Of a DNA stretch of 64,000 nucleotides, positions 28,604 through 64,000 are shown in pieces (positions within the stretch are counted from its first letter, which is position 1; each line of letters starts with the position of its first letter). The notes under the pieces are model-generated. The model did not search any database. It was not told the origin of the DNA and saw only the letters and a program-made list of their open reading frames with translations. The DNA is from Euglena gracilis (taxonomy: Eukaryota). The translations under genes were made by a program, and so were the position numbers. The stretch spans positions 36,875,703 through 36,939,702 of the forward strand of contig CP154954.1 of NCBI GenBank assembly GCA_039621445.1. Direction: 5' to 3'.

Positions 28604-30501
28604 ACGTTTTTTTGGAGAGATTTTTTGGAGAGATAAAATTTTTCACCCTCTGGACTCTGGAGAAACATTCCATTCACTGTGTATTATTTTTTTTCCGCAT
28701 TTCCCCCCAAAAACAAAATGAAACTGCCTTGCAATTCATGTTTAAAAAGTTCTAAGCAGTCAAAGCAAACCAGCAAGATACCCCATCTTCGCATGGGCAA
28801 GCCAATGCCTCACGCAGGAATAAAAAAAATCGAAAAATCATTGTGTCATTACAATTTCTGGCAAATCATTTTGACATGAAAAGGTTATCCTCCCTTTCAG
28901 CATGGTGTAGGTGGGCTTGAATCAAGACCCTCAGGGGCAGGCTTCTGCTTAAGGGTTCGCAATATCCCCCCGGGGGTAGTGCACGAGAAAAACGGACGAG
29001 AAGCATATTTGGATTGGGGGCAGAAATGTGTCCACAGGGCAGACTTCTACGGAATCAAGGTAAACGACAACAAAATCCTGCGGCAGTGCAGTGCATTGTT
29101 TTGTATCGCAGCGAAGTGGCAGTGGCGTTACAATGCTTTGGGTTTGAGAACAAAGAGGAACGTCGGTGCAGTGGTGGTGTGTATTTTGAGGCTCTCAGGT
29201 ACTGATGTGCCTCAACTCCTACGTGTGGACCCCCCAGGGGTCCACAGGGGTTTAATGCAATCAACAGGGATTTTGCCCAACCTAGTTTTAAGATGAGGCC
29301 TGGGATTATTACTGAGGGACCCCGCACAGCAATCAAGTTTGGTGGTAAGCAAGGACAGGGTTGGAGTCTCTGAGCTTCTCTTTGCAGTAAGAGCGAAGCT
29401 CACCCAGGAGGAAAGGTGTCTGATCCCCTTCCCCCCTTGGTTGGAAATGAAAACCGCATTGTCACCATGACCCCAGCCCCGTTCCGAGGATTTCTTTCCT
29501 GTCGCAAGCGACTCCATCCCAACTTTCTGAATCACCTCTGTTTGACCCCCAACTCCCCGCCAGGCCCAATTTATTCAGCCAACAAGGGGTCCAAACTGGG
29601 TAGGATTAGCCACCCCCCCCCAGTTTCGACCCCTGGCCCCCCCCAGGAGGTGGTTGGATGGGTGGGTGGGTGCGGACACCCCTCCCCTAAAAATATCTCT
29701 GATTTTATGATGTCCTCTGATAAAATATGGAAACAAAAGGTATGATTGTGACATGAAGGTTTGATTGCATTGTGTTTTGGGAACCTGTGGTATTTTGCTT
29801 TCATGTTTAACGTTGGAGAAATATGACAGTGTTTTTGGCATTGTCTAAAGAAAATTCAAGGTGCATTCCACAGATTGTCACAGGTGTCTTCACCCTCGGC
29901 TGGTCCTTGAACCAAATTTTCCAAGTCTTCATGATTCTCGAGGTAGGTGGGGGTTTGACATCCACCCCCCTCCCCGTGTCGGGAGGGGGCAGCCCTCCCC
30001 TCAGGGCCTCCCATGTATTCCTGCCCAACCCCAGCCAGCAGCCCTCATCCAGCCTCTGAGCTGGCTCCCTCATCCCAGGGTTTGTTTGAGAAGGGCAAGC
30101 TTTCTTCTCGACAGAAGTACATTTATCTTCTTATTAGGAATTAATGTGGGGATGGGGGACATGCCGGTTTTGGCTAAACCTGTTCCTAAAAAATCCCATC
30201 CGAAACCATTGAAACCATTGAAATTGAGAACCCCCAAACCACGCTGGATTACTCTGGATGTCTTTCTGGTCCTTTACCCATGTCCTGTCAGTGGGACCCC
30301 CTAGGGGTGTATCTGCAGCACAAATAAAAAAGCATAAAATATGTAGGGGGACCTCCTTAAATCATGTAGGTAGAACACCCTGGATATCATTTCTGCACAC
30401 CCTCGCCATGGTTTTCCAATACTGGCATATCTGGGCTCAAACCACAAACCACGTTTTTTTTTAAAGCATTTTCTATTGGCAATTCCACCCTTATTTTGCA
30501 G

Positions 30502-30635
30502 GAGGTGGATTTGCTCGTCGACGCTTTTGATTACAATAAAGATGGAAAAGTTTCTTATTTGGAGTTCTGCAATGCCATCACCAATGGTCCTTGGACACCT
30601 CTGAATGTGCAGGAGCGCAAAGTTGAAAGCCTGAG
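30502..30635 (+). CDS. EF-hand protein exon 3 (EVDLLVDAFDYNKDGKVSYLEFCNAITNGPW...)
   Basis: ttgcag| and |gtcatt boundaries, canonical EF loop DYNKDGKVSYLE, 134 nt, phase 0 to 2. Confidence 0.9.
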
Positions 30636-42527: not shown

Positions 42528-42661
42528 GAGCTTGATTTGCTTATTGATGCGTTCGACAGCAATAAGGATGGCAAAGTGTCGTACCTGGAATTCTGCAACA
42601 CAATGGTGAATGGCCCCTGGGCTACGATGCAGTTTAAAGAGCCACCAATCACAGATCCAAA
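42528..42661 (+). CDS. EF-hand protein exon 7 (ELDLLIDAFDSNKDGKVSYLEFCNTMVNGPW...)
   Basis: ctgcag| and |gtacga boundaries, 134 nt, paralog of exon 3. Confidence 0.9.
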
Positions 42662-43096: not shown

Positions 43097-43165
43097 GATC
43101 CCTACAGTGCACAAAGTTCCTGACAATGAAGTGAGGTTGAATCTGCTCTTGCAGTCACTCCACAG
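43097..43165 (+). CDS. EF-hand protein exon 8 (IPTVHKVPDNEVRLNLLLQSLHR)
   Basis: ccacag| and |gtcagc boundaries, phase 2 to 2, resembles VLNRLHQDLRR in exon 13. Confidence 0.75.
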
Positions 43166-43260
43166 GTCAGCAGTGCCCGTCCATCGAAGTTGGGATATTC
43201 CCAACTTCGGACCCCCTGGGCAGGTGGGTCTGCCGGTGGGTCCCCCCCCCCCCGGGGGGT

Positions 43261-43871
43261 CAGGGCAGAACGGGAATCGGCCAAACAGCCAGGGTGGTGG
43301 GTGGGGGGGTGGTCGACCACCCTCCCCACCACCTCTTCCTGTATTTCCGGGAGCACCAATTTTTTGGACCCAAAATTTTTTCCCGGCGCCGAAAGAAAAA
43401 AAACCGAAGCCGAAGGCGCCGGGAGTTTTTTTTTTTTACCATTTTGGGACCCGTATGGGAGGTCCCCCCCAAAAACCCCTAAACCCCCATTTTTTCACAC
43501 CTTCCAAAATTTCAACATTTTTCTCAAAAAACTTTTTTAGAGGTTTTTGAAGCAAAAAAAATGTTATTGAATATCCAAAATTTTCCAAGAGAAAAAATGT
43601 CAGTAAAATTTGCGTGTGCCAAAATTTGGTCCATTTTTTTGACCTTCGTTTTTTTCAGCCCCTCCTAAAAACCACCAATTTTTAAACCTGAAAATTTGAG
43701 ATTTTTTTTGTGAAAGAAATGTGGTTTTCCATCAAAAAATCATGCTTTTTGAGTTCATTTTTCAAAAAATTTCCCCAGCCAACATCCCCGTTTTCCCAAA
43801 GTTGGTGAAAATGCTGTGGTGGGTGGGGGGGGTCGACCCCCCCCCCCACCAGGCTTTCCCATTCTGCCCTG
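43261..43871. mobile_element. MITE with CAGGGC ends; relatives near 28000-28463 and 36047-36306
   Basis: TIR CAGGGCAGAACGGGAA/TTCCCATTCTGCCCTG; TSD not conserved. Confidence 0.75.
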
Positions 43872-44924
43872 CTGGGGATGCTCCCCCTAACTAACTAAAG
43901 TGGAGTATGTGCCTGGCACCTGGTGGCCGGCGTCGTAAACAAGGTAAGTCCCGCCAGGCTCCGGCCACCTCCACGTACACAGACAAAACGGGCCAGAGGT
44001 GAAAAACAGCGCCAGGCCAGAAGAAGGGATAAAATGCGCCAAACAAAAAGCCACAGTGCACGCAGGGTACCCCCAAGGGTCTTGTGGGTCCCCCGCCAGA
44101 GGCAGGGTTTGGACTTTTTTGGCTTTTTTTTTCGGCACAAAGTGCCAGTAAATTTTTTGACCCAAAAATTGACCCCTCAACAATTGGGTCCCCAGTTTGA
44201 TTGCCAAAACGAGCAGAACCAGGTGGAAATGGTGGAAGTGGGAAAATGGCCGGAAACGGGCTGCCCAGCTCAAACTTTGGCAATGAACATATTTCTTTTG
44301 GCGTCTTGCCGATGTTTGGGCCTTTTTGCAGTTTCTGGTTTCTGGACCCAGTTCCACCCCAGGGAATTTTAGCCAGGGAATCACATATGGGAGGCAAGCA
44401 CCTCTGATGATGCTGGGCGATGCTGGGCGATGCAGGGCGATGCTGGGCGATGCTGGGCGATGCTGGATTTTTGGAGACCAGAGGTGGGGTTCCGATGCTG
44501 GGTGATGCTGGGCGATGCAGGGCGATGCTGGGCGATGCTGGGCGATGCTGGCATTTTTTTTGTATATTTTGGAGAATTGAACCATTTTTGGGATAATTTT
44601 CCCAAAATCACCAAAAAGGCGCAAAATGGCTAAAAATGCCATAAAATCTGCTCAAAAAGGCCCCAATTAGCCCAATGTTTGCCAAATCAGTGATAAATAG
44701 CCCCAAATTAGCAAAAATTGACCCATAATGGCCAAAATGGGTGTCAAACTGGAGCTTTGTGGGTCATTTTTCACAATCTTTTGTGGACATTGTTGGCATT
44801 TTTGGGCAATTTTTGGTTATTTTGGTTGTTCTTTGGGGGCTTTTTGTGGTCAATTTTGGGCTTTTTGTGGCCATTTTTGGAGTTTTTGTGGTTAATTTGG
44901 CTTGGTCAGGAGCCAACGGATGAA

Positions 44925-45420
44925 TACTGGACAGATGCTGGACAAGATGCAGATGCTGGACAAGATGAACTGGATGCAGGCACTGGACAAGATGCAGATG
45001 CTGGACAAGATGAACTGGATGCAGGCACTGGACAACATGCAGATTCTGGACAAGATGCCGATGCTGGACAAGATGAACTGGATGGCAGGCACTGGACAAG
45101 ATGCAGATGCTGGACAAGATGCCGATGCTGGAAAAGATGCAGATGCTGGACAAGATGCAGATACTGGACAAGATGCAGATACTGGACAAGATGAATTGGA
45201 TGCAGACACTGGACAACATGCAGATGGTGGACAAGATGCAGTTGCTAGGCAAGAAGCAGATGCTGGACAAGATGCAGATGCTAGACAAGATGCGGATACT
45301 GGACAAGATGCAGATGGACAAGATGCAGATGCTGGACAACATGCAAATGCTGTACAAGATGCAGACACTGCACAAGATGCAGATGCTGGACAAGATGCAA
45401 TGAGACAAGACGCAGTGGAT
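44925..45420. repeat. 18-bp minisatellite (GATGCTGGACAAGATGCA)n
   Basis: Degenerate tandem array. Confidence 0.9.
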
Positions 45421-45564
45421 GCACGCTGTTGCTGTTGCAAGGGTGCCACCCTCCACCCTCCGGCACAACAACTGTTTTGGATTTTGTTTGTCTGACCGGC
45501 AAGAGACTTGCAACTTGCACTCGATGTTGCCATCTCACAGGCCTGCAACACATCCTGTGCTGGC

Positions 45565-46010
45565 AAAAAGCAGCAAAAGTGGTCAAAAAGTGGTCAAAAA
45601 GCAGGCACAAGTGGGGTAAAAGTGGTCAGAAAGTAGCAAAAGTGGTAAAAAGGTGGGCAAAAGTGGTCAAAACGCAGCAAAAGTGGGCAAAAAAGTGAAA
45701 GTGATCAAAAAGCAGCAACAGTGGCCAAAAGTGGGCAAAAAGCAGGGTCGAAAAGCAACAAAAGTTGTCAAAAGTGGTCAAAAAGCAGGCGAAGGGGCCA
45801 AAAGTGGTCAAAAAGCAGCAAAAGTGATCAAAAAGCTGCAAAGGTGGTTGGATATGGGCAAAAGTGGGCAAAAAGCAACAAAAGTGGTCAAGAAGCAGTC
45901 AAAATTGGTCAAAAGGCAGCAAATGTGGGCAAAAGTGGTCAAAAAGCAGTCAAAAAAGTGGTCAAGTGGTCAAAAAGCAACCAAAGATGGCCAAAAGTAG
46001 CCAAAAGTGG
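45565..46010. repeat. Degenerate 10/20-bp tandem repeat (AAAAGTGGTC/AAAAGCAGC)
   Basis: Tandem array inside the hAT-like element. Confidence 0.85.
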
Positions 46011-46200
46011 GCCAGAGCGGCAAAAACAGCAGGCATTATAGGTACACCTTCAAGGGCTCCAAAGGCGATGCTGGGCGATGCTAGGCGATGCTGAGCGATG
46101 CTGGGCGATGCTGGGCGATGCTGGGCGATGCTGGGCCCAAGGGCATAGCTGACCAGAGGTGCTTGATGGGAGGGAACGGCTGGCTGGCTACTTTTCCGTC

Positions 46201-46230
46201 ATTTGTGTTCCAACGTATTGGGACATTGAA
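46201..46230 (+). CDS. EF-hand protein micro-exon 9 (FVFQRIGTLK); no AG at the expected 5' boundary
   Basis: Consensus donor AA|gtaagt in phase 2. Aligns without gaps to FTSSRFGTNK in exon 13. Confidence 0.6.
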
Positions 46231-46759
46231 GTAAGTGAGAGTTGGTTTTGCACGGTGGGGGTCAGACCCCCCGGGGTTCCAGACCCTCTCCGTCCTGCTT
46301 TAGATTCGGGAGGGGGGGTCCCTGGAACCCAGAAAGTTTTTCTCTGGGGCAAACATAATTTTCTATTTTTTGCCTTCTTTCAAGGGTGCTAAATATACCT
46401 TTTCGCCTTTTTTTTCCAGCCCAAAAAGATTTTTTTTTTGGCAATTTGTTTTGTACAGGAGGAGGGGTAGGGAAGTCCCGAACCCCCTCCTCCCCATTGG
46501 GGTGGGGTGGCTTTTTTGAAGTGTTAAAATCCAGGCAAAAAACAGCTCAGTATTTCGGAAAGGATGATTAAAGTTGGATGTTTTCATTTTGACTAGACAA
46601 AAGCCTTTTTGCGGGAATGTCCCAAATGTACGTCCAAGAAGCATAATGAACAGAAGTTTGCTGAAGGGCCCACATTTTGGGACATACCCAAAGATGCCCA
46701 AGCAGGGTGTCTCTTAAGCCAAGTTTGCATTTTCTGTTTCTTTTTCTAAAAATTGGCAG

Positions 46760-46793
46760 GGATACACTGCCTCAGGATGAAAGACAGACAGGA
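46760..46793 (+). CDS. EF-hand protein micro-exon 10 (DTLPQDERQTG)
   Basis: ggcag| and |gtttgt boundaries, phase 2 to 0 bridges its neighbours, supplies the DxxxxG half-loop. Confidence 0.5.
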
Positions 46794-48020
46794 GTTTGTT
46801 TTTTGTGTTGGAATTCGCTGTAGAATCTTTTTTGGCACTGGTCCAAATCATTGGTATCCGACATTTTCATTCTGGTACCTTGTGCCTGGGTCATGTGATG
46901 CAATCCTTCCTGACTTCCCAGCACAACACATCCGTACGGGGGGGGGGGGGCAGGGTTGGTTCCCAGGGTGACCCAGGGAATATTGGTCAGCAAAGATCCA
47001 TCTAATTGACCCGATTAGGATTTCAGCGCAAAATCCACGGCTCAATCCATCCATCCAGTCTCAACTCTCTTCCCTTTGCTAGGTTTTCAAATGAATCAAC
47101 TGTTGTCTCCACTGGTTGGGTTTCCTCAGGGCTTTGGAGCAGCGATTCCAAACAGTGCAGGAGGCGTTCATTCACCTCGATAAGAATCGTTCTGGCCTCA
47201 TCAGCGCCCAGGAGCTGATTGGCATTCATGGAGGAAATCACTTCCATGATGCCATGATTTGTTTTGTTCGATTTGTTTTGAGTCAAGTTTAGCTTTGAAG
47301 CATTGAGAATTCATTACGGCTGGGAAAAAGGACGGAAACGTCCTTAAGCAATGGCATTGTTTGGCAAGGTAATTAAATTAATGAAAAATTTGGTAAGACC
47401 TCCCAAATATTCAAGGGATTTTGCCCAATTTTAACCTCCTGCCCAAAGTGTTAAGTGTACGGCAGTTTTGCGGGGGAGGGGGGTCAGACCACCCCCTCCC
47501 CAGAGGGGTCCAGACCCCCCCGCTCCTGCCGCACTCCTGTGAAGGGAATCAAACACGGCAGAAACCCACAAATTTCCTCCAGACAGAACATATATTTGGA
47601 CAAAATGACTGGCACAGCAAAATCAAAGCGAGTTTTCAATTTCAATTGAAACATCCAAAATTCGATGAATTTAGAATTATGTAAAAATCCACATCTTGGG
47701 ATCTTTTTAAGTTTGAAAGTTTGCGCGCAACAAAGTGATTTTAATGGCATAATTCAAGCTCAGATAAAGCAATGTCATTTTCTCCCGCGCTATAAATCAG
47801 CCGACTCATTTATAAGAAAGTGGCTACAAGAGAACACATTGGTCAACATATGTAGTGCCCAGATTTTTTAAAAAAAATAAAATTTGATGGTGCAAAAATT
47901 TGGCACCCCGCCAAGTGATAGCGAGGGGGGGGGGGCATTGTTGAAGGGACTGCACTTCCAGAGCAGTTGGGGGCAGGTTTTTCTGCTGGGTGAAGAACAC
48001 CCAAGGCTACCACCCTACAG

Positions 48021-48155
48021 TTTCTCTTAAAAATCGTGGGATTAAAGTCAGATTTCCTCCATGTTATTGTTTTGCACAACAACAACGTTCGTGTCAACTG
48101 GGAAGACATTCAATTGTTAGTTGATTATTTTGACACGAACAAGGATGGGCTGATT
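48021..48155 (+). CDS. EF-hand protein exon 11 (FLLK...SDFLHV...WEDIQLLVDYFDTNKDGLI); 3' boundary non-GT
   Basis: ctacag acceptor, clear EF motif DYFDTNKDGLI, followed by TCC TGA with no GT. Confidence 0.75.
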
Positions 48156-49255
48156 TCCTGATTGGGCTGTTTTGTTACTTTCTGAGGATATCAATCTTTG
48201 GCAAATGGAGCACACACGGACTAGACACAAGCTGCACACGCACACGCTTGCATGCGCACGCGCGCGCACGCACACTTGCGCAAACTCACATCCATGTGCA
48301 TAAATGCATGTGGACGTGTGTGCACACGTGCGCATTTGAACGCAAACACACATTTAGGTGCCGGCAAAGACACTCACAACCATCAGCCAGCCACCCACCC
48401 ACCCACTCATTTGCTACCCCCCCCAGGGTTGTTCAGAAGCTCCGCAGACATGAGGGTGGTGGTAGGGGGGGGGTCACCCCCCCTCCAGGGGGGTAAGGTG
48501 GTGGGGGGGTCCCCCACCCCCCCTCCTCCTCTGCGAGAGCAAAAAAAAATTCCTCCGGCGCTTCGCACCGGGTGTGTACTTTAAGACCCTCTTGAGTCTC
48601 AACATGGAATTTTGGCAAAATGGCCCAAATTGGCCGAAAAATGGCCGTAACTTGGGATGGGCGGGGAGTTGCGTGGAAATCAAAATACTTTTAGACAGGG
48701 CATTTTAAGGGCTTCAATTTAGGTCTCGAACATTTCCTTTGTTCCCCACCGTTTTTGAGAAATTTCAGAAAAATCGACCTTTTGATCCCAAAAAACGACC
48801 GAAATTTTCGGTGACCGAAAGCTGGAGGTAGGAGGGGGGTCGGTCCCCCCCCCTCCGAGATTCCCACACAACTCTGCCCCTCCCCCCCGGCGCTTGGCCC
48901 CACTCCTTCTTGCATGCAAATTTGCCCCCTAAAGTTTGGCCTTCGGCCTTTTGCACATGGCCGCCAAAATTTTCAACGTGCAAACTTGGCCCCCATAAAA
49001 TTGGCCCAGTATTAAGTGAGCGGTGGTTTTGCAGGGGGGGCACCCCCTCCTCCCCCCCCAAACCAAGGGGGGTCTGGGAACCCAAAAAAAATTCCGGCGC
49101 GAATAGCTGGAAACGATGAAAATTTTGGTGTGCATTTTGACCGATTTTTCAAGAAGGTGCAGGAAAACGCGACTTTTGGGCCATTTTCAAGGCCGACAAA
49201 AATTTTCAAGGTAAAAATTTACAAAACTTTTTATGAAGGTAGCTTTTTGAATTCA

Positions 49256-49324
49256 AATTTTCAAGAATTTGTCAGGCTTGTTCATGGGCGGTCAAAGAGT
49301 CATCCAGGCATCAAACCAACGTCG
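49256..49324 (+). CDS. EF-hand protein exon 12 (NFQEFVRLVHGRSKSHPGIKPTS); 5' boundary approximate
   Basis: Completes the loop DTNKDGLINFQE and the exit helix. Donor |gtaccg in phase 0. Confidence 0.7.
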
Positions 49325-49921
49325 GTACCGGTTGGAAATCAAACACATTTCTTTGAGTATTCAGTGGATGGGCAATGTTCCAGCAATGCCAGAAATAATT
49401 TTCCCCGGGGTTGATTTTTTTTTTGCTGAGATTTCGAACTTCTTTTTTTTTTGCTCAATTTCGAATATTTTTCCAGGACCAATTTTTAAAGGTTTTCTAA
49501 GGTTCCTTTAGGCAATTTGTCCAATTTTTTTCAGTCTTTTTTAAAAAAATTTTGAAGGTTTTTTGAGGCGCCTTTTCAAAATAATGCCTGCTGGGGGAGG
49601 TACACATACAGCACCTCTTTCTGCAAAACACCATGTTATTGTCTTCCAACATAATCCCAGAAAATTTCTCTTGAAAATGATGGCCATTTGGGCCCCAGGC
49701 AAATTCTGACCTACTTTATGCTTTATCGTCAATTTGTGGTTTGCCAAAACTGACCCTTTTAAGCGACGCCTGACGCCAACTCTTGGGCTGTTTATGTCCG
49801 TTCAAAGGGCCATCGCCCAAAAGGTTGGAATTCACCAGATTTCAGGTAGGCTGAGCAACTGCATAATGCGGAGTCGTGTCTCATGAAACGTCACGGATAA
49901 TGTGAAAAAATGCTCCATAGG

Positions 49922-50262
49922 CATTGAATGTAACCCCCTCAAATAAGAGACCCCCCGGTGTGTTATTTGGGCACTAGGGGGGGTGTGTTATTTGGGGGGA
50001 TGTGTTATTTTTACATGGAAAACCAAAGGAAAACAGGGGTGTGTGTTATTTGGGCGCCCGAAATCGGCCCCCGGGGGGGGGGTGTTATTTGGGGGGGAGT
50101 TATTTGGGGGGGGGTGTAATTTGGGGGGGGCTTTCGATGTTCAGCAATGCAGGTGGGGAATTTTTGTTTCAAATGTGACAGCTCGGATTAGCAAGATTAC
50201 ATTTGAGAGAATAATGGATGGTATTCTACATAGCAGCATTCTAAATGTCCTCCTCATGCAAA
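49922..50262. repeat. Dispersed repeat with an inverted copy at 63655-64000
   Basis: Near-identical reverse complement. Confidence 0.85.
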
Positions 50263-53200
50263 AATTTCCGTCCCAGCGCTTTGTGCCGGGCCGAATATCA
50301 TCACCTGGGCCGCCACTGTTTCGGTTGGGGGGTGTCAAAAAATGGCCTGGTTCTTTGGTAAAAAGTATTTCTTTTTTACAAATCGCTTATTTTTGAACTT
50401 TTTTTTTGCAATTTTCCTTTCCCAGCTCGATTTCGTTCCATCCAGGGACCCCCAGCTCCATTTCGGCAAAACAAATCCAAGAAAATTTGTGCACTCATTC
50501 ATCATTCATCACTCATTCATCATTCACCATTCATCCAGCAAACAAACGAGCACAGTGCTGAAATTTCAATTCAGAAGCAAATTTGATTTTGACCCAGAGA
50601 TATAGTTCCCTCTTGCGAGGGCGTCGCTTAAGCTGGAAGGTCCCCTTTCCTGGTGGGCCCCCTGGTCAACATCCTGGGGGGGGACCTGTCCAGCTGGCCA
50701 AAAGACAGCTGGAACAGATTTTTTTTTGGAGGTGCAAAAATAGGCCAAGGAAAGGGCAAAAAAGGGACGCAACCAGGTTGGTCATCTCAAAAATCCGGCA
50801 AAACTTCTGCACGTTTGGTGCAGTTTTGTTGAGGTTTTTCCTGCAGTTTCGATTTCTTTGAATTGGGTTCGACGCAGTTTCTGCCAGGGATCCCAGCCGC
50901 TTTTGGGGAGGGAGGGAGGGCTCAGCCAGCAGCCTTTTTTTTCCAGGCAGCCCAAGTTTTCCATCTCTGGGCTGAACTCTTCCCAGTCACAAACCCATGT
51001 CTGTTGTTGCTTTTTTCCTCTCCTGCGATGGATCAAAGGACACCACAGCCCTGCAATGGGAAGAGTTTGTGCGGGGTATTCAAATGAACCGGTGGAACCC
51101 CCGTGGTGCTGGTGACAGCCGGGATACGCTTCTGCCCAAGCCATCTGTGGCCCCTGGTGCACGTGTGGAGGAACCTGGGCAGGGTGTGGCATTTGACACA
51201 TTTGCATAAAATCTTGAGTTTGACCACAACTGAAGGCCGCCGAAGGTTATAGAGGTCACCCAAAAAAATTATTTTCCCCCCAAATATAAGGCCTCCCCGC
51301 CAAATATAAAGCCCCCCCCCCCCTGAGGGTCTTGAAATCCCGTCCAAATACAAATCCGGGAGGGCTTTATATTTGGGAGGTTAGCATGCAATCCCCTGAC
51401 ACACTTCACCACCATTTTGAGCACAAAACCTCCAGTGCCTCTCGCACTTGAGCTTGCACATTTTCGCACATGTCGAAGAATTTGATTTTGGTGCCGTGGC
51501 AAATTGTCCATCAAATTGTCCTCCATGCCCCACTGATGTTTAAGACCCTGCGACATCCGCAAAACAACAAAAATGCATATGGACGGTGAACACACTCGTT
51601 CACACTGAAGAATGGAAATGGGGGGGGAGCCCTAAGCAGAAAGCAATGATAAGCAAATGTCATTTCCAGATGCTCACTTTGGAAAATGTGCAATTATTTA
51701 ACCCTCCCCTCTAATCGAAGCACGGGTGCGCTTATAGCGGACCGTCGACTCCGGTGGTGGTGCGCTTCATTTGGACCCTACCCGCGCGATTTTTGTTGAT
51801 TTCCTCTGGAAATCCCATCAAAATGGGGGGTGTGCTTGTGGTGGCGCTGCCTTTGGCGGCGTGGGCGCGCTTTTGTTTGGACCCTGCGCTTGTACGCCCC
51901 CGCGCTTCTATTAGGGGGGGGGGGTTTATCCAAAATGGAGCATTTCTGGTGGAAAAAAATTGTTGTATCCTTCTAAAAATTTTCAATGTTTTCCTGAATG
52001 GCAGGTCTTGGCCCACGCCAGTGGGGGGCATTATATTTTTTGGGCAAAACTAAACCAACCTCAGGGGGGATTTATATGTGGGGGGGGCTTTGTATTTGCG
52101 GTGGGTTTATATTTGGGGGTTTATGGCCCCATGAGCACGGTGGCTTGCAAGTCAGCTGACACCCAATGCACCTCATTTTCGGACAAAAATACTGGTGATG
52201 ATGCCCATTTTTAAACTCAGGTTTTCAGGAGGGAAAATTGAAAATGCAGTTTATTTGATGTGTCAGGGCTTTGATATGGTTTTTCACAGCTTCACCGATG
52301 TCCAAATTTGGGCCGAGATGGTCCTTTTGTTGTATTACATACCCAGCCTGTTTACGCAGTTGCACAAACGGTTGGTGTGGCAAATGCGCACACCGACCAC
52401 CAATTCTTCAAAAAAAAATCAAATTTCAGGGCGTCGTTTCAGGCTTAGTTTCACCTCACCAAATTGTCCCAGCAGCCCATGTTGATGAGGCAGCCATCTG
52501 AAGGCTGGGGGGAATTGATATCCGCATTTTTTTTTAAAAAAATACTGCAATTTCCGCAGTTTTCTGCAATTTTCCCACAATTTTTTTTTGCAATTTCCCC
52601 CCTTTCTGCAGTTTTTCCGCATGGATGATGGAAGGCGAAGTGGGTTTCGGCCATTTTTTGAACATTTCACAGGGGTACCCAGGCACTTTTTTTTTGTTAT
52701 TTTGTTGCAAATTTGCCAAAAAATTGCAAAATTTTACAAATTTTGACAAACGTGGGCAAATTTTTGGCCAGTTTTTAGGGTTTCCCCCAATTTCTGCTAC
52801 TTTGGACTTGAAGATTCCGAGTCCTGACCATTTCACCTTATACCAAAGTTTTCGGCAATTTTGCCAGCGTTTGATTTTTCACCAAATATTTCCAAATCGG
52901 CATGTTCTCAAAATTACAAAAAAACCTGTTTTTGGACTTTTTGTTTTTTTTTAAAAAAAGGTGAATAACAACCCAAATCTTACACCTATATTGCAAAATG
53001 ACCAATTTTTTCCAAGTCCCCTCCATCAGAAGTGTACAAATCCCCAAAACCGTAATGTCTACAATTTTTCGCAATTTATCTGCAATTCTTCCAATTGCCT
53101 CCAACCTCCATTCACCCCTGGCAAAGGTTCCAAACATGCCTGCTCAGGCACCCTAACCCAGGGTTCGATAAAAGGACTGCATACAGGGTTTGGGTGGGTG

Positions 53201-54898
53201 GGGTGTCCCCCCCCCCCCCCCCACCGGAGGGGGGGCTGGACCCCCCCACCTGTCAAGGGGGTGTGGACCGACCCCCGGGGAGACCCCCTCCAAAGAGGTC
53301 AAATTTTTCCTTTCGACGCAAAGCACCGGATTTTTTTTGCATTTTTGACTTTTTTTTTGCCTGAAAAGTGCCCAAATGGCACTTTTGGCTGTTTTTTGGG
53401 AAAAAGTTTCCGCCCGGTGCTTTGCGCTGGGCTGAAAATCAGTCACCCAGACCGCGCCACTGTTTAGGTGGGGGGCGTTCCCCCCCGGACTGGAGGAGGG
53501 TCCTGGGGCCCAACCTACCCACCCACTCTCGAAAACCCACCCGCCCACCCCCTGGGGGGTCACACAGGTGTTGTTAAGTGACTCAATTTATACCCAGGAC
53601 GCGGGGATGAAAGCAGGGAGATAGGGCAGGTTTCAAACTAAGGGCAGGTTGGGGTGGGTCGGATTGCAACATGGATCCAGTTTTTGCCCGGCCAAAGGCC
53701 GGGCCGGGAAAATTTTTCCAGCGTTTTTGGCTGGATTTTGGGTGGGTGGGTGGGTGGGTGATTGACTCCCGGGGGGGGGGGGGTTCAAAAAAAAGTGGGT
53801 GGGTGGGTTTGGGCCTGTGAAAATGTGCCTCCCCCCCATGGTCACTAAGTAAATCCATGGTCCCAGGGCACCACATCGCATCCTGATTGTGCAATTGGGT
53901 TTTTTGGGAGCCAAGCGTTGTCATTTTTAAAATATGTCAATTTGCGCAAATGCGAACATCGACAAATAATAATTCCTTAATTGCGAGATACACTTAAGGT
54001 CCAATTGCCTACCATTGAAGATAATTCTGCCAAAAAACGCCCAGGCAAAGTTGAGAATTGTTGGGCTGCACGTTTTTGGTTGTAATTTTTCTGCTTGGTC
54101 AAAACAACCAGGTCGAAACAGCGGGGCTGAAGAGGAGCATTCTGTTGTACCTCAGTTATCTGGTGCTGACAGACTGCTTAACTCTGGAACTGGATTTTTA
54201 ATTTTAATTAGATTTAATTGGAATGCGAGCTGATTTAAGGGGGGTGACGGTAAAGAGTTGATGAGCAGAACGATTGATATAATTTATCTGCCTACCCCCC
54301 CCCCCCCAAATGACATCCCCGGGGGGTTTGCCTTTGGTGCATTTTGGAATATTGGTATATTTTGGGTACATTTTTTCAACCTCAAAAATGAACATTTTTT
54401 GCATCATTTTTACACTTTATTCCACGTTGATATTGCCTCAAGTTTGGTGTAACAGTCATTTTTGCCAAAATATGCTGCTCGTGGAGGATATTTTTTTTTC
54501 AACTTTCTTCTTTGCTTTCTTTGGGGTGATGCAGGGGGGCGTATTGTTTTGAGCAGCTGAAGTCCTGGGCCAGGGGGGAGGGCATATTTTTGGGGTATAT
54601 AACTTGGGGGGTTTACATGTAAACTCCCCATTTGGGCGGTCTTGTACACTCGCCTAGAAGTTTGCTGGAGGTTAGCATAGTGCAAGGCTGAGTCAGGATT
54701 GTTTGTTTGTTGCTGATGATGAGGACGAAAGTGACGTTGAACAAGGAATCACAAAATGTGTGTCGAACACCTGAATAAATTTCTGGCCTCAGTTTCCCTC
54801 CACGCCATGTGCATGGCAGAAATCTATGTTGTGGAAATTGTCCACAATCTTGTTAATCAAACACATCTCTGCTTTGTATTGGTCTGTTTCCCCCAAAG

Positions 54899-55025
54899 TC
54901 AAATGCACATTCTGCAACCACTCCAAGTGTTTTGAACCGATTGCACCAGGACCTGCGAAGGTTCACATCATCCAGATTTGGCACAAATAAGGATGCTTTC
55001 TTGGCCCTGAACACTTCTCGTTCTG
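54899..55025 (+). CDS. EF-hand protein exon 13 (SNAHSATTPSVLNRLHQDLRRFTSSRFGTNKDAFLALNTSRS)
   Basis: ccccaaag| and G|gtgtgc boundaries. First half of the loop NTSRSG|AITKSE. Confidence 0.8.
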
Positions 55026-58000
55026 GTGTGCCTCTCGGCCCAACCAAAATGCATGGAAAGGTGTTGGAAGACCTCTTCCCCTCCTGGTGGGGATGTATCC
55101 AGCCTTCCGCCAGCCACCAGCCACTGGCCTCTGATAATGCAAACCCTTAGTCATTGCCCCCCCTGCTGGGGGTGGGGGTGAATGAGTGTGTTTATATATA
55201 TATGTATATATGCATATATATATGTATATATAGTGATTGACTGGATTTTGGCCCAAACTCCCACCTTCCCTGAGGTTCGGCAAGAAAGGCACCAAAGTGA
55301 CCAGGCGCCTAAGGCACGCTAAATAATTTTTGGTCCATTTTCTCCACATTTGTGGTCAATTCCTTTGGATTCCAGAGTGGAGACCCCCCCCCTCCCCCGG
55401 GGCCGGGGTGACTGACTGGTTTTCTGGAAAAAAGTGGCTGACTGGTTTAGGAAGAATGGAATCCAGGCTCAGCAAAAAAGATGCATGCCTCTGATCCAGT
55501 GGTGCAATACTTTTCCAGCTCAACTTGCTGGTTTTTTTAAAAAAAATAACTGAAACCTTCGGAAGATAAAAGGCAACAATAAGGCAGAAAGAAGACAAGC
55601 AAATCAGATTTTTTTTTGGCAAAGCTGACTCCCCAGATTCTTCTGAATCTTAAAATGTCAACGTTTTCCAACATCATTTTGGAGAATTGAGAGTGATGCT
55701 CACCGATCTACGTCCCATAATTTACAGCAAAATTGTTGACAAGTTTTGGCAAACAGGTCTGGCAGCTCCTCGGGGGATCTGCAGTGGCCATTCGCTTGTT
55801 CTATCTCATCCCCGCTCGTTCTAGCAAGTCTGGTTTTCAGAACAACTTGGGCTCATCATCATCAGCATCATCATCCTGGCACAGTTGTCTGAAAAATGAT
55901 TTAAACCTCCCAAATATTAACAACAGCTTGTTAAGTGTTGCTCACTTACGAGGCATAGTTTTAAAGCAGAATATTGTAGATTTGTCAGGCATTTTCAGGC
56001 ATTTTCTAACTTTTCAAAGGCATTTAAGGTATTTTTTTTTGCATTTTTTAAGGCATTTTCTGGGGATCGAATCGATGCCAATCAAAGTTAAAAAGTTGAA
56101 AATTTTATTTAGGTGGATTGATGATCCTGAGGTGGATAGACCAGCGATGCCAGAAATAATTTTTCCCCCTGAAGTTTGCCTGCTTTTGCCGAGATTTTGT
56201 GATTTCATCTTTCCTCTGCATCATGATGAATTTCTCAAGGCATTTAAATGCATTTTTGGCCAAAAAATGTAGGGCATATTTCAAGGCATTTTATTTAGAA
56301 TGCCAGAGTGACACTTAGGATTTTGGCCGGTTTGGGTGCATGTGCGAGTGAACTTACGACGTGCCCAAATGCTTCAATTTCCCATGTTCGAAACACTGTG
56401 CCGGACACCACCCTCGGACGTGTTACCCATGGCTACAGTGTCTCGGGGTTTGAACCTCGAGAAGTGCATCCAATGACACGGTTTTGTCACGTTACAGGGG
56501 TTGTCATGGCTCGTGTTTGAAACCTCGGCTGGCAAAAATGAAATCAGGAAATCACCCATCTCTCTCTTGGGGTTGAAGCGAATTTCTGCTGGTCGATATC
56601 GACCCCAGTGGTCGGCCCGACCAAGTGACGCCGACCTTGTCAGGGACCCCAGGATTGTCACCCCCAGGAACCTGCTCGGAGCCCTAGTTGCGAGCGAATA
56701 TCGTCTGCAACCACAAAAAAATCCATGGCTGATTTCCCGCAATGAGCCGATCGACACTAACAGTTGCAACATGGGAGGCTTGCTTTGGCGGCTGAGGGCC
56801 ATGCGTCCAACGCAGAAGAGGAGCTTTCAGTGGCCGGGCAAGACAAGTGCAAGACATGGGGTGTGCTGTGCAAGGTGCCGAGGTGACAGGTGTGGGAGGT
56901 TTCACTGCCGCAGGAGAATGGCTGGGGAGGGCCATTTCGGACATGGACATGGCAGTGGGGTCAGTGGTGTGCGACAGCGCTGGATGACGCCAGTCACCCT
57001 TTACGGCCCCAATTTTGGAACCCCTGGCAAAAAGCACAAAGCAAAGAGGCAGACACTGTCCCCAGTCACAGCACTGGGCAGCTGAGTCAAAATGAAAATA
57101 GCCTCGTTACACTGCTTTTATGCTGGGATGTCTGACTAATTTCAAGCACACATTCCTGAAATGTCGTCTCTCAATCAATCACTGCACAATACCATTTCAG
57201 GGCGAAGGGCAACCCACACCCAAACCCTTTGGCGTCAGTCGGCGTGTGTACCTGTTTGCGCGAGAAGATACGCGATCCCTGCCATATTACAGATCCTGGC
57301 ATGCACTGATGGACGCATCTGCGCGCGTTTGGGAAAACAGATGAAGACACCCCCAGCCGCAGCAGGATAAGCCGAGTGTGGGAAGCAGGGTAAGCCAAGG
57401 GAACCAAGAGTGTGGGACGTTTTCAGTGTGCAGCTCAATCAGGTTTAACACTCCTGTGTAACACGTTTTCAGAAATGCGAGCTTTCCCAGAGACCCCCCA
57501 ATCGTGTGCACATGTGCACGACCCCGGCCACCAAAGACCTCTCTTCGTGGCCAACGCCAATTTTTCAATGACGGCTTTGTCTGTTTGAAAGCACCTCAGC
57601 ACCATTTCAGTCATTAACCCCTCTGACAAATTTCAGTCATTAACCAATGTGTACATGAGTCCATGTGTCCTCCCCAACTGCCCTGTGGCACCTGATGGAT
57701 GCTCGCAGTTGCCGTAACCAGAAAAATACTCCTTTCTGCCGCGACCACCAAGGATTTTTTTTGCGACTGGCTGCATCCCGGCCGCATCCCATTGTTTGTT
57801 GTGCGCCACATATGCACCATGGCACGAGCGCTGTGTGTCGATGCACCAGCACACTGCAGTGATGCAAGGCCCCACAATGTCATCCGGGTTTTTTGAGGTT
57901 GGACCTGGAGGGGGGGCTGTTGTTAAACCACCAATTTGGTTGTTTCTCCAACCCAAAATTGATTCTAGGGAGCTTTTTTCAAATAATATTGATTCTCTCA

Positions 58001-58688
58001 GCGGGGAGAAAGGCTTCAGCATAAATTTTCATTTAAGTAACAGATATAAAAAAAATTTAAAATTTTCAATGATAGTTTCTCTTGCCGTCACAGTGTTTCT
58101 CTTTAAATTATTTCAGAAGGTTTTTTTTGAAAGTTTGTGTTATTTGTGTTTGGCAAAAGTGAAAAGTGAGAATAAACAGTTGCAAATATAATTTGCTTTT
58201 TCGAAAAAAATTGAATGCAAAAGTTAACTTCTCGAAGAATCAGTTCCCTCAATAACAATTTACCGAAATTTTTCTGCAATTTTGTCAATCTGTCAAAAGC
58301 ATGAATAATCATCCATGATTAAATACATTCATATTTTTCAGGTACCTGTTCCATCACCATTTCTTTCAACAGCGAAACAGAGAAGCAGGAATTGAAAATA
58401 ATTTTTGAGTTCATTTTTTTGAAAAAATGTCGATCATTTTGACGTTTTCGGCCATTTTGACGTTTTCATGACGTCCATCGTGACGGTTTCGGCCATTTTC
58501 GGCCGAAATCGGCTGCGCCGGCGCTCCCAAAACGAGCGCTCTGCCCCGGCTAGAGGTCGGCGATCCTTTACCTAACTGTTGCGAAGGGCGGCGGGCGGAT
58601 AGCCGCAATTTTGCCCGCGGTGGGCGTGCGTAAAACGCAGCCGTTATCGCCCGGGAAGTTTTGACGATGATTTCAAGGGTGTCCCATA

Positions 58689-58947
58689 CAGGGGTTTTTT
58701 TAGTCGTGGACCCCCGAGGGGGGGGGTAGGGTGGGTGGGTCCGGCCGAGCCCCCCCCCTTCGGGGGGACCCCCCGGAGGGGGGTGGGATATACTTTTCGG
58801 CGCCGCAGGCGCCGAAAAATGCTATTTTTAGCACTTTTCGCGATTTTTCGGCCATTTTTTGTGGGTCCCCCGCCCCCCCCCCCCCCCCCCCCCGGGGGGG
58901 GGTGGGGGGGTGGGGGGTCCCCCCCCCCGGTCTTAAAAAAACCCCTG
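58689..58947. mobile_element. hAT-like MITE family A
   Basis: Same TIR, perfect 8-bp TSD gtcccata. Confidence 0.9.
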
Positions 58948-59781
58948 GTCCCATAACAACCCAACAGGGCGTCGCTTAAGGACCCTCCCAGAGAGGAGTC
59001 CTCCAGGTCCTTCAGACCTGGAAATTTGGACTGGCTGAAAAAAAGCTGTTGGGTGCCCCCCCCCCCATGCAGACCCTCTGCCCATGTTGGAGGCCGTCGC
59101 TGAAACTTTGTCCAGGCGATGTCCACATGTGCGCAACCATTTTAGGCTATTTTCTATTTGCTTTTGTTTTGGGGGCTATTTTTGGCCATTTTTTGATTTT
59201 TTTTGGCAAATTTGGCTCACGTTGGGTTATTCTGAGCCACAGTCATTTTGGATCAATGTTGGCCTTTTTGGTAATTTTTGGTCACTGTTGGCCAAAAATT
59301 TTGGGGGGGCAATCAGCTGTCATTTTGGTCATTTAGGCCATTTTCCATCGCAGTGTCCTCCAGGTTTGCGGAAAATGACCGAAAATGGCCAGTCAAAACT
59401 GTCCTAAAAAGTTCTCAAAACTGGTCTATAATGGCACCAAAATGGGCAGAAATGGTCCCAAAATGACCCAAAATGGGTTGAAATGATTTGAACATTTCCA
59501 AATATGGTCCAATTTTTTTTGGAAAAGTCGCATATTTCCGCTTATTTTTCCGCATATTTAGCCCATATTCCAGCGTATTTTAGCGCATATTTGGGGGCCG
59601 TTTGCCGTTTTGTGCTTATCCCCCCCGGTTAAACCTGGTTGAATTTCTTTGGATGAAGGGGAAATTTGGGCGTTTTTTGAAAAATGTCAATCAGCGTCAT
59701 CTGATGGTTTTTGGATTTCATTTTTTTGTTGATCTTTGTTGATGGGTGTGGCTGGCTTTGCCAAATGCGCATGCCTATCAG

Positions 59782-59948
59782 GAGCGATAACAAAGAGCGA
59801 GTTTGGATTAGCATTAGCTAAAGCATCAGATGTGAAGCTCACTGAGGACAAAGTCAATCAGCTGTTTGAGGTCTATGACAGCAACAACGATGGGCTGGTG
59901 CAGTTCACTGAATTCGTCAAAGCCATGAACAAGGTGCAAGTACAGTAA
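59782..59948 (+). CDS. EF-hand protein last exon (GAITKSEFG...LFEVYDSNNDGLVQFTEFVKAMNKVQVQ*)
   Basis: atcag acceptor in phase 1, canonical loop DSNNDGLVQFTE, TAA stop. Confidence 0.9.
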
Positions 59949-62900
59949 TTGGTGCGACATTGTCAAGCAGCACCCAGTGTGCATGTTCATTGTATGGCAA
60001 TCATTTTGTTCGAAATATGCCGTTTCAAGGGATTTGACAATTTCCCGCCTTGTTTGATTTCCTTCACAGGTGGCAAGGGGTGGTCAAAGTTCCAGGCCAG
60101 GGGTTATTCATTTGAAAGGTTTTGTATTTGTTGTTTGTAAGGGATGTTAGTTCTTTTTATTTATTTATTTATTTTTTCTCCCTTGCCCTCCACTTCCATT
60201 CAATATTAAAGTTCATGATGTATTCCAAACCTCAGTATGGATTTCATGATGATGCTTCCAATAAATGAATGATGAGGTGTTCATGCAACCAGTGACACAA
60301 AGAACCTGCAGCCATCAAAAGAACACAGAACAGGAATTACAAAAGGAGGAGGATAAAAAGGTCGTGATAAAAAAAGCTGCTTTGATGCAAGAAAAAAATC
60401 GAAAGCGACAAAGTGCATATTGGTCCAGGCAAATATTTGGTCAAACAAGCCCAATACCCATTTCACATCAGAAATTGAATTTGGGTGGAAAGAATACAAA
60501 AAAAATTTAAAATAAAATATTTTCCGCGAGTGGGGTTTTTCTGGGGTTAATGTTGAAGAATAGGGTTAGGGTTAAATTTAGTGTCAGGGTTAGGGTTCGG
60601 AAATCGGGTTAGGGTTCAAGGAGAATGATGCAGTTTGGCCCAATTTTGGCCCAGTTTAGACCTTGATGTCGGCCTTTATCGAGACCCAAATTTCTGCCTG
60701 ATTTCGCCCGAACCTTTTCCCCAAACCCTAACCCTAACCCTAATCCAAATCCTCACTCTTGCCCAAATCCGAAATTCAACGGAAAGGTGCGCATTGGGGC
60801 GCAAAAATGCAAAAATGGAGTTGGTAACAAAGTTGGACCCCCACCCACCGGTTAAACTACTGCGTATCCTCTTTCCTAGCGCCACGTCAAGTTTTCTGAA
60901 ATTGTTTTTTTTAAAGAAACTCCCCCACCAATGACGAATATATGGTTCTATATTTGGCCAAATAAAGAGAAACCAATCGTCAGAAATTTCTTCCACCCCA
61001 AAGTCACTGTACAGCCATAAACCCGCCCGTCCCACCATAACCCCGCCCATCCGGCTATAACCAGGTTTTGCGTAGTGCTGAGCTCTGAACGTGTGCGATG
61101 GTGCCATGCTGCACTTGTTTGGGGCATGTGGTGGCCAGGGCGGCCCAACCCGGCAGCCCGTCGGCCTGGCCCGGCCCCGGACTTTTTTGACGTGAAAATG
61201 ACCCAGAACGCATGGGTTTTGGGTCGAAAATGGGGCCCCGGGGGGGTCGAAAAAAACTCATTTTTGCTTGAAAACAGTCTTTCCGGGTCTGGGAGGCCAA
61301 AAAAACATTGTTTTGGGTTTTTTTTCCCTGACTTTTTTGACCTAAAAATGGCCAAAAATGGCTGAAGTCAAAATAGGCCAAAATTGTACAAAATGGCCAA
61401 AATTGGCCAAAAAAATGGGCCGAAACTTGGGCTGGGCGAGAAGTTACGGGGAAATCAAAATACTGTTAGACAGGGCATTTTTAGGGCTCCAATTGGGTCT
61501 CCGGTCATTTCCTTTGATTCCACACCATTTTTTAAAAAAATCAGCAAAATCGATATTTTTTTTTGGCCCAGAAATCGGCCAGAAAGGGATGAGTTGGAAG
61601 CCTGCCGCGCTGTTCTGGTTGTCGATCAGCAAATGTTTCCCTGGAGGCCCTCTATCCCCCCCCCTGAACGCCGTTTTTTTTTTTGGCTGCCAACACGCCC
61701 GGCCTGCAGGGATGGAAGGGAAGCCCTTCGGTATTGAGGTAGTTGGTAGGGGGGTCCCGACCCCCCCCCCCCTCCTAGATGTTGGGAGGGGGGTCCGGAC
61801 CCCCTCCACCCTCCTTGATGGGTGCCAAAAATAGCAGAAAATTTTCTTCCGGCGCGCAGAATGAGCAAAAACGCCCCTTTTGCTGACTTTTGGACATATT
61901 GTCCATTTTTGGATGTGTTGGTGTTTTCCCCCCCAAAAAATGTTCAGAAATTTCAAAAAATGACATTTTTTGGATCAATTTTCAAAGAAAAATCAGGGAT
62001 TTTTTTGACCGATTTGGACCCCATTTCCGGCCCTTTGCCTGTCCATCATGAAATCGAAAAATTTTCGGCCTCCCCTCAGTTTCAAGGTAGGAGGGGGGGT
62101 CGGGTCTGCCCCCCCCCTCCGTGTTGAGAGGGCAGGTCCGACCACCCCCTGTGTTCTGGGTCATTTTCGGGTCAACAAATTCAAAAAAAGCAAAGAAAAA
62201 TTCGGGTCAAAAAAATTCTGGGCTGGGCGATCGGGCTGCAGGCTGGGCCGTGCCGGGCCGGGCCGGGCCGCCGGTACGCCAAGTTGCCAACTTCCAGAAA
62301 TAATGTACGTTTTCTCGAGATATGTTTTTTTTAAAAAAAAATCGATTTTTTTACCAATTTCTGAACCCCGGCGAAATGGCAGAGCCAAAAGAGGGGGGGC
62401 GCGGGCCAATCCTACCCAGTTTGGACCGCTTCGTGGGTGAGTAACTCGGGCCTGGCGGGGAGTTGTGGGTCAAATGGAGGTGATTCGGAAACTCGATATC
62501 CAGTGTCCTGCGACTGAAAAGAAAAAAACGGTTGTAAGCTTCGCTCTAACTCAAAAGAGACAAGAACTCAACGACCCCCACTATAACCAGGTTTTGTGTA
62601 GTGCTGAGCTCTTCACGTGTGCGATGGTTCCATGCTGCAGCAGGTGTTTGGGGCGTTTGGCAGTCGGGGCAGCCTGGCCCAGCCCGGCCCGGCCCGGCGA
62701 CCCAGCCTGGCAGCCCGGGGCTCGGCAGGACCGCCTGACTGGAGGTCGAAAACATTTATTTTCAGCGCCAAAACAGTTTTTCCTGGTCCAGGAGGCCATA
62801 ACACATGGTTTGGGGCATTTTTTTTTCAATGTTTCGAGGAACAATATGACCCCCTGGGGGCCACCTCGGGAAGCGGTGGATTATCACCATGACCCCGGCT

Positions 62901-64000
62901 CTGTTCCCAAAATCTTATTCTTCAGTCGCAAGAGACTGGATCCCGAGTTTCCAAATCACCTCTGTTTGATCCCCAACTCCTCACCAGGCCCGAGTTATTC
63001 ACCCGCGAATAAGTCCAAACTGGGTCCTCTTCCGACTATCCCATTTAGTTGAGGTCCAAAAATCGGTCAAAAATATCTCGAGAAAACGTACATTAATTCC
63101 GAAAGTGTCGGTCAGCAAATGTACCTCTGGAAGCCCTCTATCACCCCCCCCACCCCCGAACTCCGTTTTTTTTTTGGCTGCCAACACGCCTCCCAAAGGC
63201 GCAAAGCTGAATTTGAGTTTTCTGTGTGTGTTTTTGTGTGTGTTCAGGGTTCTGATAGAAGGAGGGAGGGTGTGTGGGGTTTAGGTTGAGGAATTTTGGA
63301 TTTTTTGGGGGGGAAGATTTTTCGGCCCGGCGCTTTGAGCCGGGCCAAAAATTGGCCACCCAGGCCACCACTGTTTAGGTGAGGGTGTATATGTTCTTTA
63401 TATCGAAACCTGCTGTGGTTTTGCATCACATTTTCGGGGGGTCCTATTGCCAAAAAGTTTGTAATGCAGGCCAGTGATGTTAGAGTGCAGCACATAAATG
63501 GTTTTCTTTTGCCTTGTTCAAACCATTGCTTGAAAACAGTTTTTTCGGATCTGGGAGGCCAAAAAAAAAACAACATTGCTTTGGGGATTTTTTCCCGACC
63601 TTTTTGACCTAAAAATGGCCAAAAAACGGCTGAAGTCAAAATAGGCCAAAATTTTTGCATGAGGAGGACATTTAGAATGCTCCTATGCAGCATACCATCC
63701 ATTATTCTCTCAAATGTAATCTTGCTAATCCGAGCTGTCACATTTGAAACAAAATATCCCCACCTGCATTGCTGAACATCGATAACCCCCCCCAAATTAC
63801 ACACCCCCAAATAACTCCCCCCCCCAAATTACACCCCCCCCCTCGGGGGCCGATTTCGGGCGCCCAAATAACACCCCCCCCTGTTTTCCTTTGGTTTTCC
63901 ATGTAAAAATAACACATCCCCCCAAATAACACCCCCCCCCCTAGTGCCCAAATAACACACCGGGGGGGGGGGTGTCTTATTTGGGGGGTTACATTCAATG

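Follow-up and report, generated by a model that had tools for sequence, protein, structure and literature searches.

Spliced RNA places a 2,898-nt nonconventional intron in the calcium-binding loop of a Euglena gracilis EF-hand gene

The window, that is, the whole stretch of 64,000 nucleotides that was analyzed, carries on its + strand a multi-exon gene spanning at least positions 23763-59945 (at least 36 kb), with four EF-hand pairs and colinear with the 432-amino-acid protein P0032. Five RNA-defined exons of this gene make up one open frame with two canonical EF-hand pairs, ending in TAA (Table 1), and the calcium-binding loop of the sixth of its eight EF-hands is split by an intron. The data mapped onto positions 46201-64000 were raw RNA-seq reads (X12, the sole raw RNA run mapped, approximately 5 in every 100 of its reads being used), contig sets X1 and X2, whose RNA nature is a guess, and DNA contigs (X11). 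Four prominent + strand joints were detected in the RNA mapping, and none of the four was present in the X11 DNA.

Table 1. Features of the 3' part of the EF-hand gene, with the previously proposed interval and the open frame at 49256.
Feature	Positions	Strand	Evidence and remarks
Exon, first EF-hand of third pair, loop DKNRSGLISAQE	47123-47223	+	Joint 47223->48069; loose end before 47123
Nonconventional intron, 845 nt, AT..TT, not slidable	47224-48068	+	Joint 47223->48069, 129 X12 reads
Exon, helix E and loop positions 1-9 of second EF-hand (...DYFDTNKDGLIS)	48069-48158	+	RNA joints on both sides
Nonconventional intron in the loop, 2,898 nt	48159-51056	+	RNA joint 48158->51057
Previously proposed 1,100-nt interval	48156-49255	+	Not a splicing unit; first part of the 2,898-nt intron
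5' helix strand GGGCTGT	48164-48170	+	7/7 Watson-Crick pairs with 51045-51051
Open frame NFQEFVRLV...	49256-49411	+	X12 depth 0; not an exon
3' helix strand ACAGCCC	51045-51051	+	Single copy in 48200-53000
CTG and 5-nt spacer, then first G of exon (CTG-CAATG|G)	51051-51058	+	3' half of the code; at slide +2 only
Exon (WEEFVRGIQMNRWNPRGAG...), loop positions 10-12 and helix F	51057-51176	+	Joints on both sides; piece of X2 contig, 0 differences
Nonconventional intron, 3,743 nt, GG..CC	51177-54919	+	Joint 51176->54920, 87 X12 reads
Exon, start of fourth EF-hand pair	54920-55025	+	Joints; tblastn from P0032 and P0028
Conventional GT-AG intron, starting GTGTG	55026-59781	+	Joint 55024->59781, skipping 4756, cut +1, 96 X12 reads
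Last coding exon, last EF-hand DSNNDGLVQFTE, TAA at 59946-59948	59782-59976	+	RNA joints; Pfam

Pfam domains were searched in each exon separately. The first exon of the third pair matched EF-hand_1 with E=2.9e-5, under the curated cut-off, and in exon 48069-48158 only profile positions 6-18 of 29 were matched, up to the very end of the exon, so that the score remained below the cut-off because the domain is truncated there. The strongest matches came from the last exon (59781-59945), both for EF-hand_7 (E=2.1e-9, 38.0 bits, cut-off 30) and for EF-hand_1 (35.6 bits, cut-off 25.4). On the 3' side of the stop codon, an X2 contig splices out a further GT-AG intron of 93 nt (59977-60069) that also starts with GTGTG. 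According to the available text of Gao et al. 2024 (PMC11170887), GTGTG is the consensus start of conventional introns in E. gracilis, and its occurrence in both conventional introns (55026-59781 and 59977-60069) therefore supports a euglenid host. Position 59976 was also found joined to sequence outside the window, in X1 and in 36 X12 reads (59976-60088 region).

The nonconventional introns flanking the split EF-hand were compared with the code 5'-N3CDG-/-CH'GN5-6|R, as given for such introns in the available text of Nomura et al. 2025 (PMC12501133), and with the pairing of +4,5,6 with -8,-7,-6 noted earlier in the corresponding text of Guminska et al. 2018 (PMC6221363). Intron 51177-54919 matched the code in full, N3-CAG...CTG-N5|A (GGG CAG ... 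CTG CAACC|A), which is further indirect support for a euglenid host. Intron 47224-48068 carried a 13-bp terminal helix from +4:-6 (ATT-CATGGAGGAAATC ... GATTTCCTCCATG-TTATT|G; -16.5 kcal/mol in a 15-nt end test), with CAT/ATG replacing CDG/CH'G. Further upstream, joint 43158->47123 was known from the loose-end consensus only, could be slid by 3 nt and gave no clean match to the code; within the intron deduced from it (43159-47122), approximately 1.7 kb of tandem repeats were observed at 44409-46136 (periods of 10, 18, 20 and up to 87).

A preliminary description, made from the DNA sequence, had drawn attention to the loop of the second EF-hand of the third pair, where DTNKDGLI (GAC ACG AAC AAG GAT GGG CTG ATT, 48132-48155) is followed by TCC TGA (48156-48161) with no GT anywhere in 48132-48161, and where NFQEFVRLV (AAT TTT CAA GAA TTT GTC AGG CTT GTT) can be read at 49256. 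All of these elements are present in the sequence. The 1,100-nt interval between them (48156-49255) was proposed as the intron, with its length fixed by the 12 residues of an EF-hand loop. The spliced RNA revealed a different structure. Joint 48158->51057, which skips 2898 nt, was covered by 90 X12 junction reads (46+44, both=2) with 55 start places, and was present as well in one X1 contig and one X2 contig, while no contig of DNA run X11 contained it. Beyond 48160, 10 X12 reads continued as GGAAGAGTTTGTGCGGG, which is the window sequence from 51059. In the mature RNA the junction thus reads ...ATT TCC followed by TGG GAA GAG TTT... (...TTTCC | TGGGAAGAG...), and the loop is completed across the joint as ...DGLIS|WEEFVRGI..., the spliced 12-residue loop being DTNKDGLISWEE.

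The depth of X12 reads was consistent with this joint, since per strand it ranged from 0 to 0.38 in bins that were wholly intronic, compared with approximately 10-11 in bins bearing exons, and was 0 on both strands in bin 49171-49764. The RNA joint and the zero depth over 49171-49764 together indicate that the exon following ...DGLIS is 51057-51176, not the frame at 49256. It is therefore highly probable that a 2,898-nt nonconventional (non-GT-AG) intron lying in an EF-hand loop begins at the flagged spot, and that the frame at 49256 is an unexpressed look-alike arising by chance. The central observation of the preliminary description, a loop interrupted by a nonconventional intron that has no GT donor, was borne out by the RNA joint, the slidable ends and the helix. 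Of its intron borders, the 5' one fell 3-5 nt short (48159-48161) and the 3' one was misplaced by 1.8 kb. Three outcomes had been named there as telling against the proposal, namely use of a weak GC-AG alternative, raw reads restoring GT/AG and transcripts retaining the TGA; none of the three occurred, and the proposed exon was skipped altogether instead.

The TGA at 48159, in frame and directly 3' of the exon, was shown never to be present in the message as a stop codon. Its position might have suggested that the gene copy is dead, or that the TGA is retained in the transcript and the protein stops at this point. We give this reading almost no weight, given that spliced reads dominate (90 junction reads; 0 to 0.38 in intron-only bins vs. 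approximately 10 in exon bins) and that the frame stays open to the TAA at 59946, matching full-length relatives to the last residue. In the X11 DNA contig covering 47340-48494, differences from the window were listed at positions 47410, 47459, 47820, 48119 and 48379, none of them at the 5' junction; near 51040-51060 no DNA difference was found among those listed, X11 being perhaps the source sample of the window itself. None of the listed X11 differences restores GT or AG at the ends of the intron. At position 48119, A>G was observed in 86 of 126 X12 reads and likewise in contigs of X1, X2 and X11; this synonymous change (Leu, TTA to TTG) is an allele or strain difference, not RNA editing.

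Proteins related to the gene were searched for by several means. Word-index protein searches yielded 0 matches for the 40-aa exon 51057-51176 and 0 for the 55-aa last exon, while a HMMER scan of a representative protein library with the last exon as query yielded 2,759 matches at E<=0.001, most of them generic multi-EF-hand proteins of approximately 34% identity. Five of the 150 HMMER matches listed were examined, and two true relatives were recognized among them, P0032 (...INWEEFSRGIQMNKWNPRGAG) and P0028 (318 aa; ...VSWSEFCKGIQMNKWNPRGAG), which probably represent orthologues or paralogues belonging to other organisms or strains. Over the RNA-defined C-terminal 193 aa, identity reached 112/192 (58%) for P0032 and 121/192 (63%) for P0028, extending to their C-terminal ends, and the frame of the gene matched both through their last residue. 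The split site is spanned as ...DGLINWEEFSRGIQMNKWNPRGAG in P0032 and as ...DGLVSWSEFCKGIQMNKWNPRGAG in P0028, the 12-residue loop being unbroken in both and continuing as ...GIQMNKWNPRGAG.

When P0032 and P0028 were compared with the window by tblastn, colinear + strand matches were obtained from 23763 to 59945, including 51051-51125 (P0032 residues 301-325, 76%) and 51051-51158 (P0028, 58%) at the exon defined by the RNA, with no match at 49256 from either protein. Local alignment scores were likewise higher for the exon pair joined in the RNA than for the pair ending in the 49256 frame (219 vs. 131 with P0032, 263 vs. 153 with P0028). The orthologue comparison that had been suggested as a check thus sides with the RNA and the 51057 exon, not with 49256. 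Comparison with the other EF-hands of the window was less uniform: the 13-residue stretch that follows loop position 8, set against four in-window EF-hands, did not separate the two exon models (identities for 51057 vs. 49256: 4/2, 3/2, 3/4 and 2/2), and only a longer tblastn alignment to the in-window EF-hand at 30499-30600 (E=2.4e-6) and the two relatives told them apart.

The model of a 1,100-nt nonconventional intron at 48156-49255 with an exon starting NFQEF... at 49256, whether as main or alternative isoform, has in its favor that frame and 12-residue loop length fit, that its ends pair at 10 of 10 positions (5 of them G-U) and that EFVR is common to the exon at 51057. No such joint was present among the 15 joints listed, the other 348 being weaker, so that on the joint table by itself a rare isoform may still occur; depth was 0 over 49171-49764, the region had neither a Pfam match nor a match from either relative, and past the loop the relatives go on GIQMNKWNP, not LVHGRSKSHP. 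Taking these observations together, we regard it as extremely unlikely, and the downstream exon proposed at 49256 was rejected. A weak conventional GC-AG intron at 48149-49242, giving DGFLNSNFQEF, can be written in frame with GC at 48149 and AG at 49241-49242; its joint was absent from the same 15, no RNA depth was recorded from 49243 on, its alignment scores to the relatives were the lowest obtained (113 and 135) and its loop is 2 residues too long, so that its probability is negligible.

The apparent fit of the 49256 frame can be produced by chance. The likeness of this frame, which had no Pfam match, to the exon at 51057 was limited to EFVR, a motif with a chance of 0.011 in a random intron of the same composition (0.12 for the looser EF[VILMC][RK]), and no wider likeness was detected. 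The possibility that the frame is a degenerate duplicate of the exon at 51057 was considered and rejected on the basis of local alignment against shuffles (DNA p=0.16, protein p=0.12). In 48156-53000, 19 stretches fitted a loose, PROSITE-like pattern for completing the loop and then stayed open for 10 codons. The pairing of GGGCTGTTTT (48164-48173) with AAGGTAGCTT (49236-49245), on which the 1,100-nt interval had been based, does exist (10/10, 5 G-U) and is not above chance: in 48200-53000, four ten-mers pair 10/10 with the GGGCTGTTTT element, and 40 reach at least 9/10. Because of these many chance pairings and of the 19 loop-completing stretches, the 12-residue loop does not fix a length of 1100 nt; it is completed from 51057, with an intron of 2898 nt.

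As TG is common to both ends of the 2,898-nt intron, the cut can be slid by 0 to +2 nt, and the intron occupies 48159-51056, 48160-51057 or 48161-51058, with ends TG..AA, GA..AT and AT..TG, respectively. The cut at 48159 is a phase-0 position. The downstream exon starts with T at slide 0 and with G at slides +1 and +2, and the mRNA fits all three cuts. The element picked in the preliminary description as 5' pairing partner at 48164 (GGGCTGT...) turned out to be the 5' strand of the actual terminal helix, the 3' strand of which, ACAGCCC, occurs once in the 4.8 kb of 48200-53000 (0.19 expected in shuffles). The helix is lengthened by two further 4-bp segments, giving a duplex energy of -18.2 kcal/mol, against -6.4 kcal/mol for the ends of 48156-49255. 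In a 10-nt+U7 pairing test the corresponding values were -8.2 and -0.4 kcal/mol. In the same text of Gao et al. 2024 (PMC11170887), most E. gracilis nonconventional introns lie between -10 and -2 in this test, a range that includes the present intron, and zero pairing energy is given for 35% of GT-AG introns and about 3-4% of nonconventional ones. Pairing energy by itself did not point to the 3' end, considering that the end used ranked sixth in the list of non-overlapping windows from 48300-53000, where many other windows reach duplex energies of -16 to -22 kcal/mol. An inverted-repeat scan of the intron returned only G-run/C-run and low-complexity pairs, nothing touching the junction.

The full code was not matched in any of the three slide positions (3/3), +4..+6 being TTG, TGG or GGG, and the helix register was +4:-8 (or +5:-7 and +6:-6 by sliding) rather than +4:-6, a displacement of 2 nt. 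The +4/-6 rule from which the 1,100-nt interval had been extrapolated is thus real, as it holds for introns 47224-48068 and 51177-54919, and fails at the loop intron itself in 3/3 positions. This displacement of the helix by 2 nt, with the 3' motif intact, is the only mildly unusual feature of the intron. As for its removal, the helix GGGCTGT(48164-70):ACAGCCC(51045-51) and the two 4-bp segments would juxtapose the intron ends, and the interval would then be excised by the euglenid nonconventional splicing machinery, as the literature on such introns leads us to expect. One might argue instead that the ordinary spliceosome removes the 2,898-nt interval at non-canonical dinucleotides (e.g. AT..TG), with the helix only aiding juxtaposition, seeing that the intron does not match the nonconventional code in its 5' half and that, according to Gao et al. 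2024 (PMC11170887, available text), experimental verification is still needed. We consider this very unlikely: GT/GC-AG and AT-AC ends are absent at all 3 slide positions, the intron carries the 3' CTG-N5|G motif, and in the text just cited it is the nonconventional introns that typically show strong pairing of their ends.

Several repeats were observed in the introns and elsewhere in the window. A dispersed repeat lies at 48577-49170 within the loop intron (X11 depth 66,542), with in-window copies at 61389-61559 (83%), 20700-20845 (minus strand, 77%) and 25593-25741 (73%). A 355-nt inverted copy of 93% identity is shared by 49922-50267, also in the loop intron, and 63649-64000, at the window end. 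Palindromes of the type GGGGGGG..CCCCCCC recur in introns, at 48460-48530, 48830-48855, 49030-49060 and 58720-58930. In the conventional intron 55026-59781, segment 58081-58674 (core approximately 58487-58660) is an extremely abundant repeat, with an X11 word depth of approximately 3.6 million vs. approximately 40-50 for single-copy sequence, and it had no Rfam match. Over the whole window, a tRNA scan and an Rfam search at the gathering threshold yielded 0 matches each.

The intron is an ordinary member of the euglenid nonconventional kind, which is already known, very common and codominant in Euglena nuclear genes. Nonconventional introns account for 71.8% of introns in E. agilis in the available text of Nomura et al. 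2025 (PMC12501133); with this class in the majority, one more is unsurprising. According to the same source, the signature is found in 61.2% of E. agilis nonconventional introns and missing from 38.8%, so that an off-code member is to be expected. As to its origin, the loop of the second EF-hand is uninterrupted in both pair one (at 30529) and pair two (at 42555), indicating that the loop intron is specific to pair three and suggesting that it may have been gained at a new position once the internal duplication had taken place. A more far-reaching interpretation, which we offer tentatively and hold to be rather improbable, is that this is a naturally efficient off-code case (GGG instead of CDG at +4..+6, helix +4:-8, intact 3' CTG-N5|G), perhaps gained after the duplication. 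If this pattern were a general one, introns could do without the 5' CDG triplet, and cuts could be measured from the 3' motif and any adjacent helix, which would help to account for the approximately 39% of nonconventional introns in Euglena that the code does not cover. In either case the locus offers a clean natural off-code example beside an exact-code intron and one keeping the +4:-6 pairing, a possible substrate for refining the code. It also calls for caution in euglenid genome annotation: as such introns have no fixed dinucleotide ends, reasoning from homology plus pairing can reach a plausible false exon, and with 19 stretches in 4.8 kb able to complete the loop, the choice could be made only from RNA reads or true relatives.

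Compared with known systems, the intron resembles U2-type GT/GC-AG introns in being removed precisely from the pre-mRNA, and differs from them in its ends (TG..AA, GA..AT or AT..TG) and in having no GTGTG 5' end, unlike the conventional introns of the same gene. With respect to U12-type AT-AC introns, one slide position starts with AT, yet it finishes with TG, not AC; the U12 5' consensus is probably absent from the intron, the computed test having covered dinucleotides only. P0032 and P0028 are proteins distinct from that of the window gene, whose 12-residue loop at the split site they share. Set against the published Euglena code, the intron lacks both C at +4 and CDG at +4..+6, and its helix is displaced by 2 nt at the 3' end, which places it among the 38.8% that the signature does not cover (PMC12501133, available text); if cut at slide +2, it would share with the code the 3' CTG, the 5-nt spacer and the purine-first exon. 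Like the nonconventional introns of Euglena in general, it lacks GT-AG, is slidable via a short direct repeat and has a terminal helix joining its ends, and its gene, as in those systems, carries conventional GTGTG...AG introns alongside.
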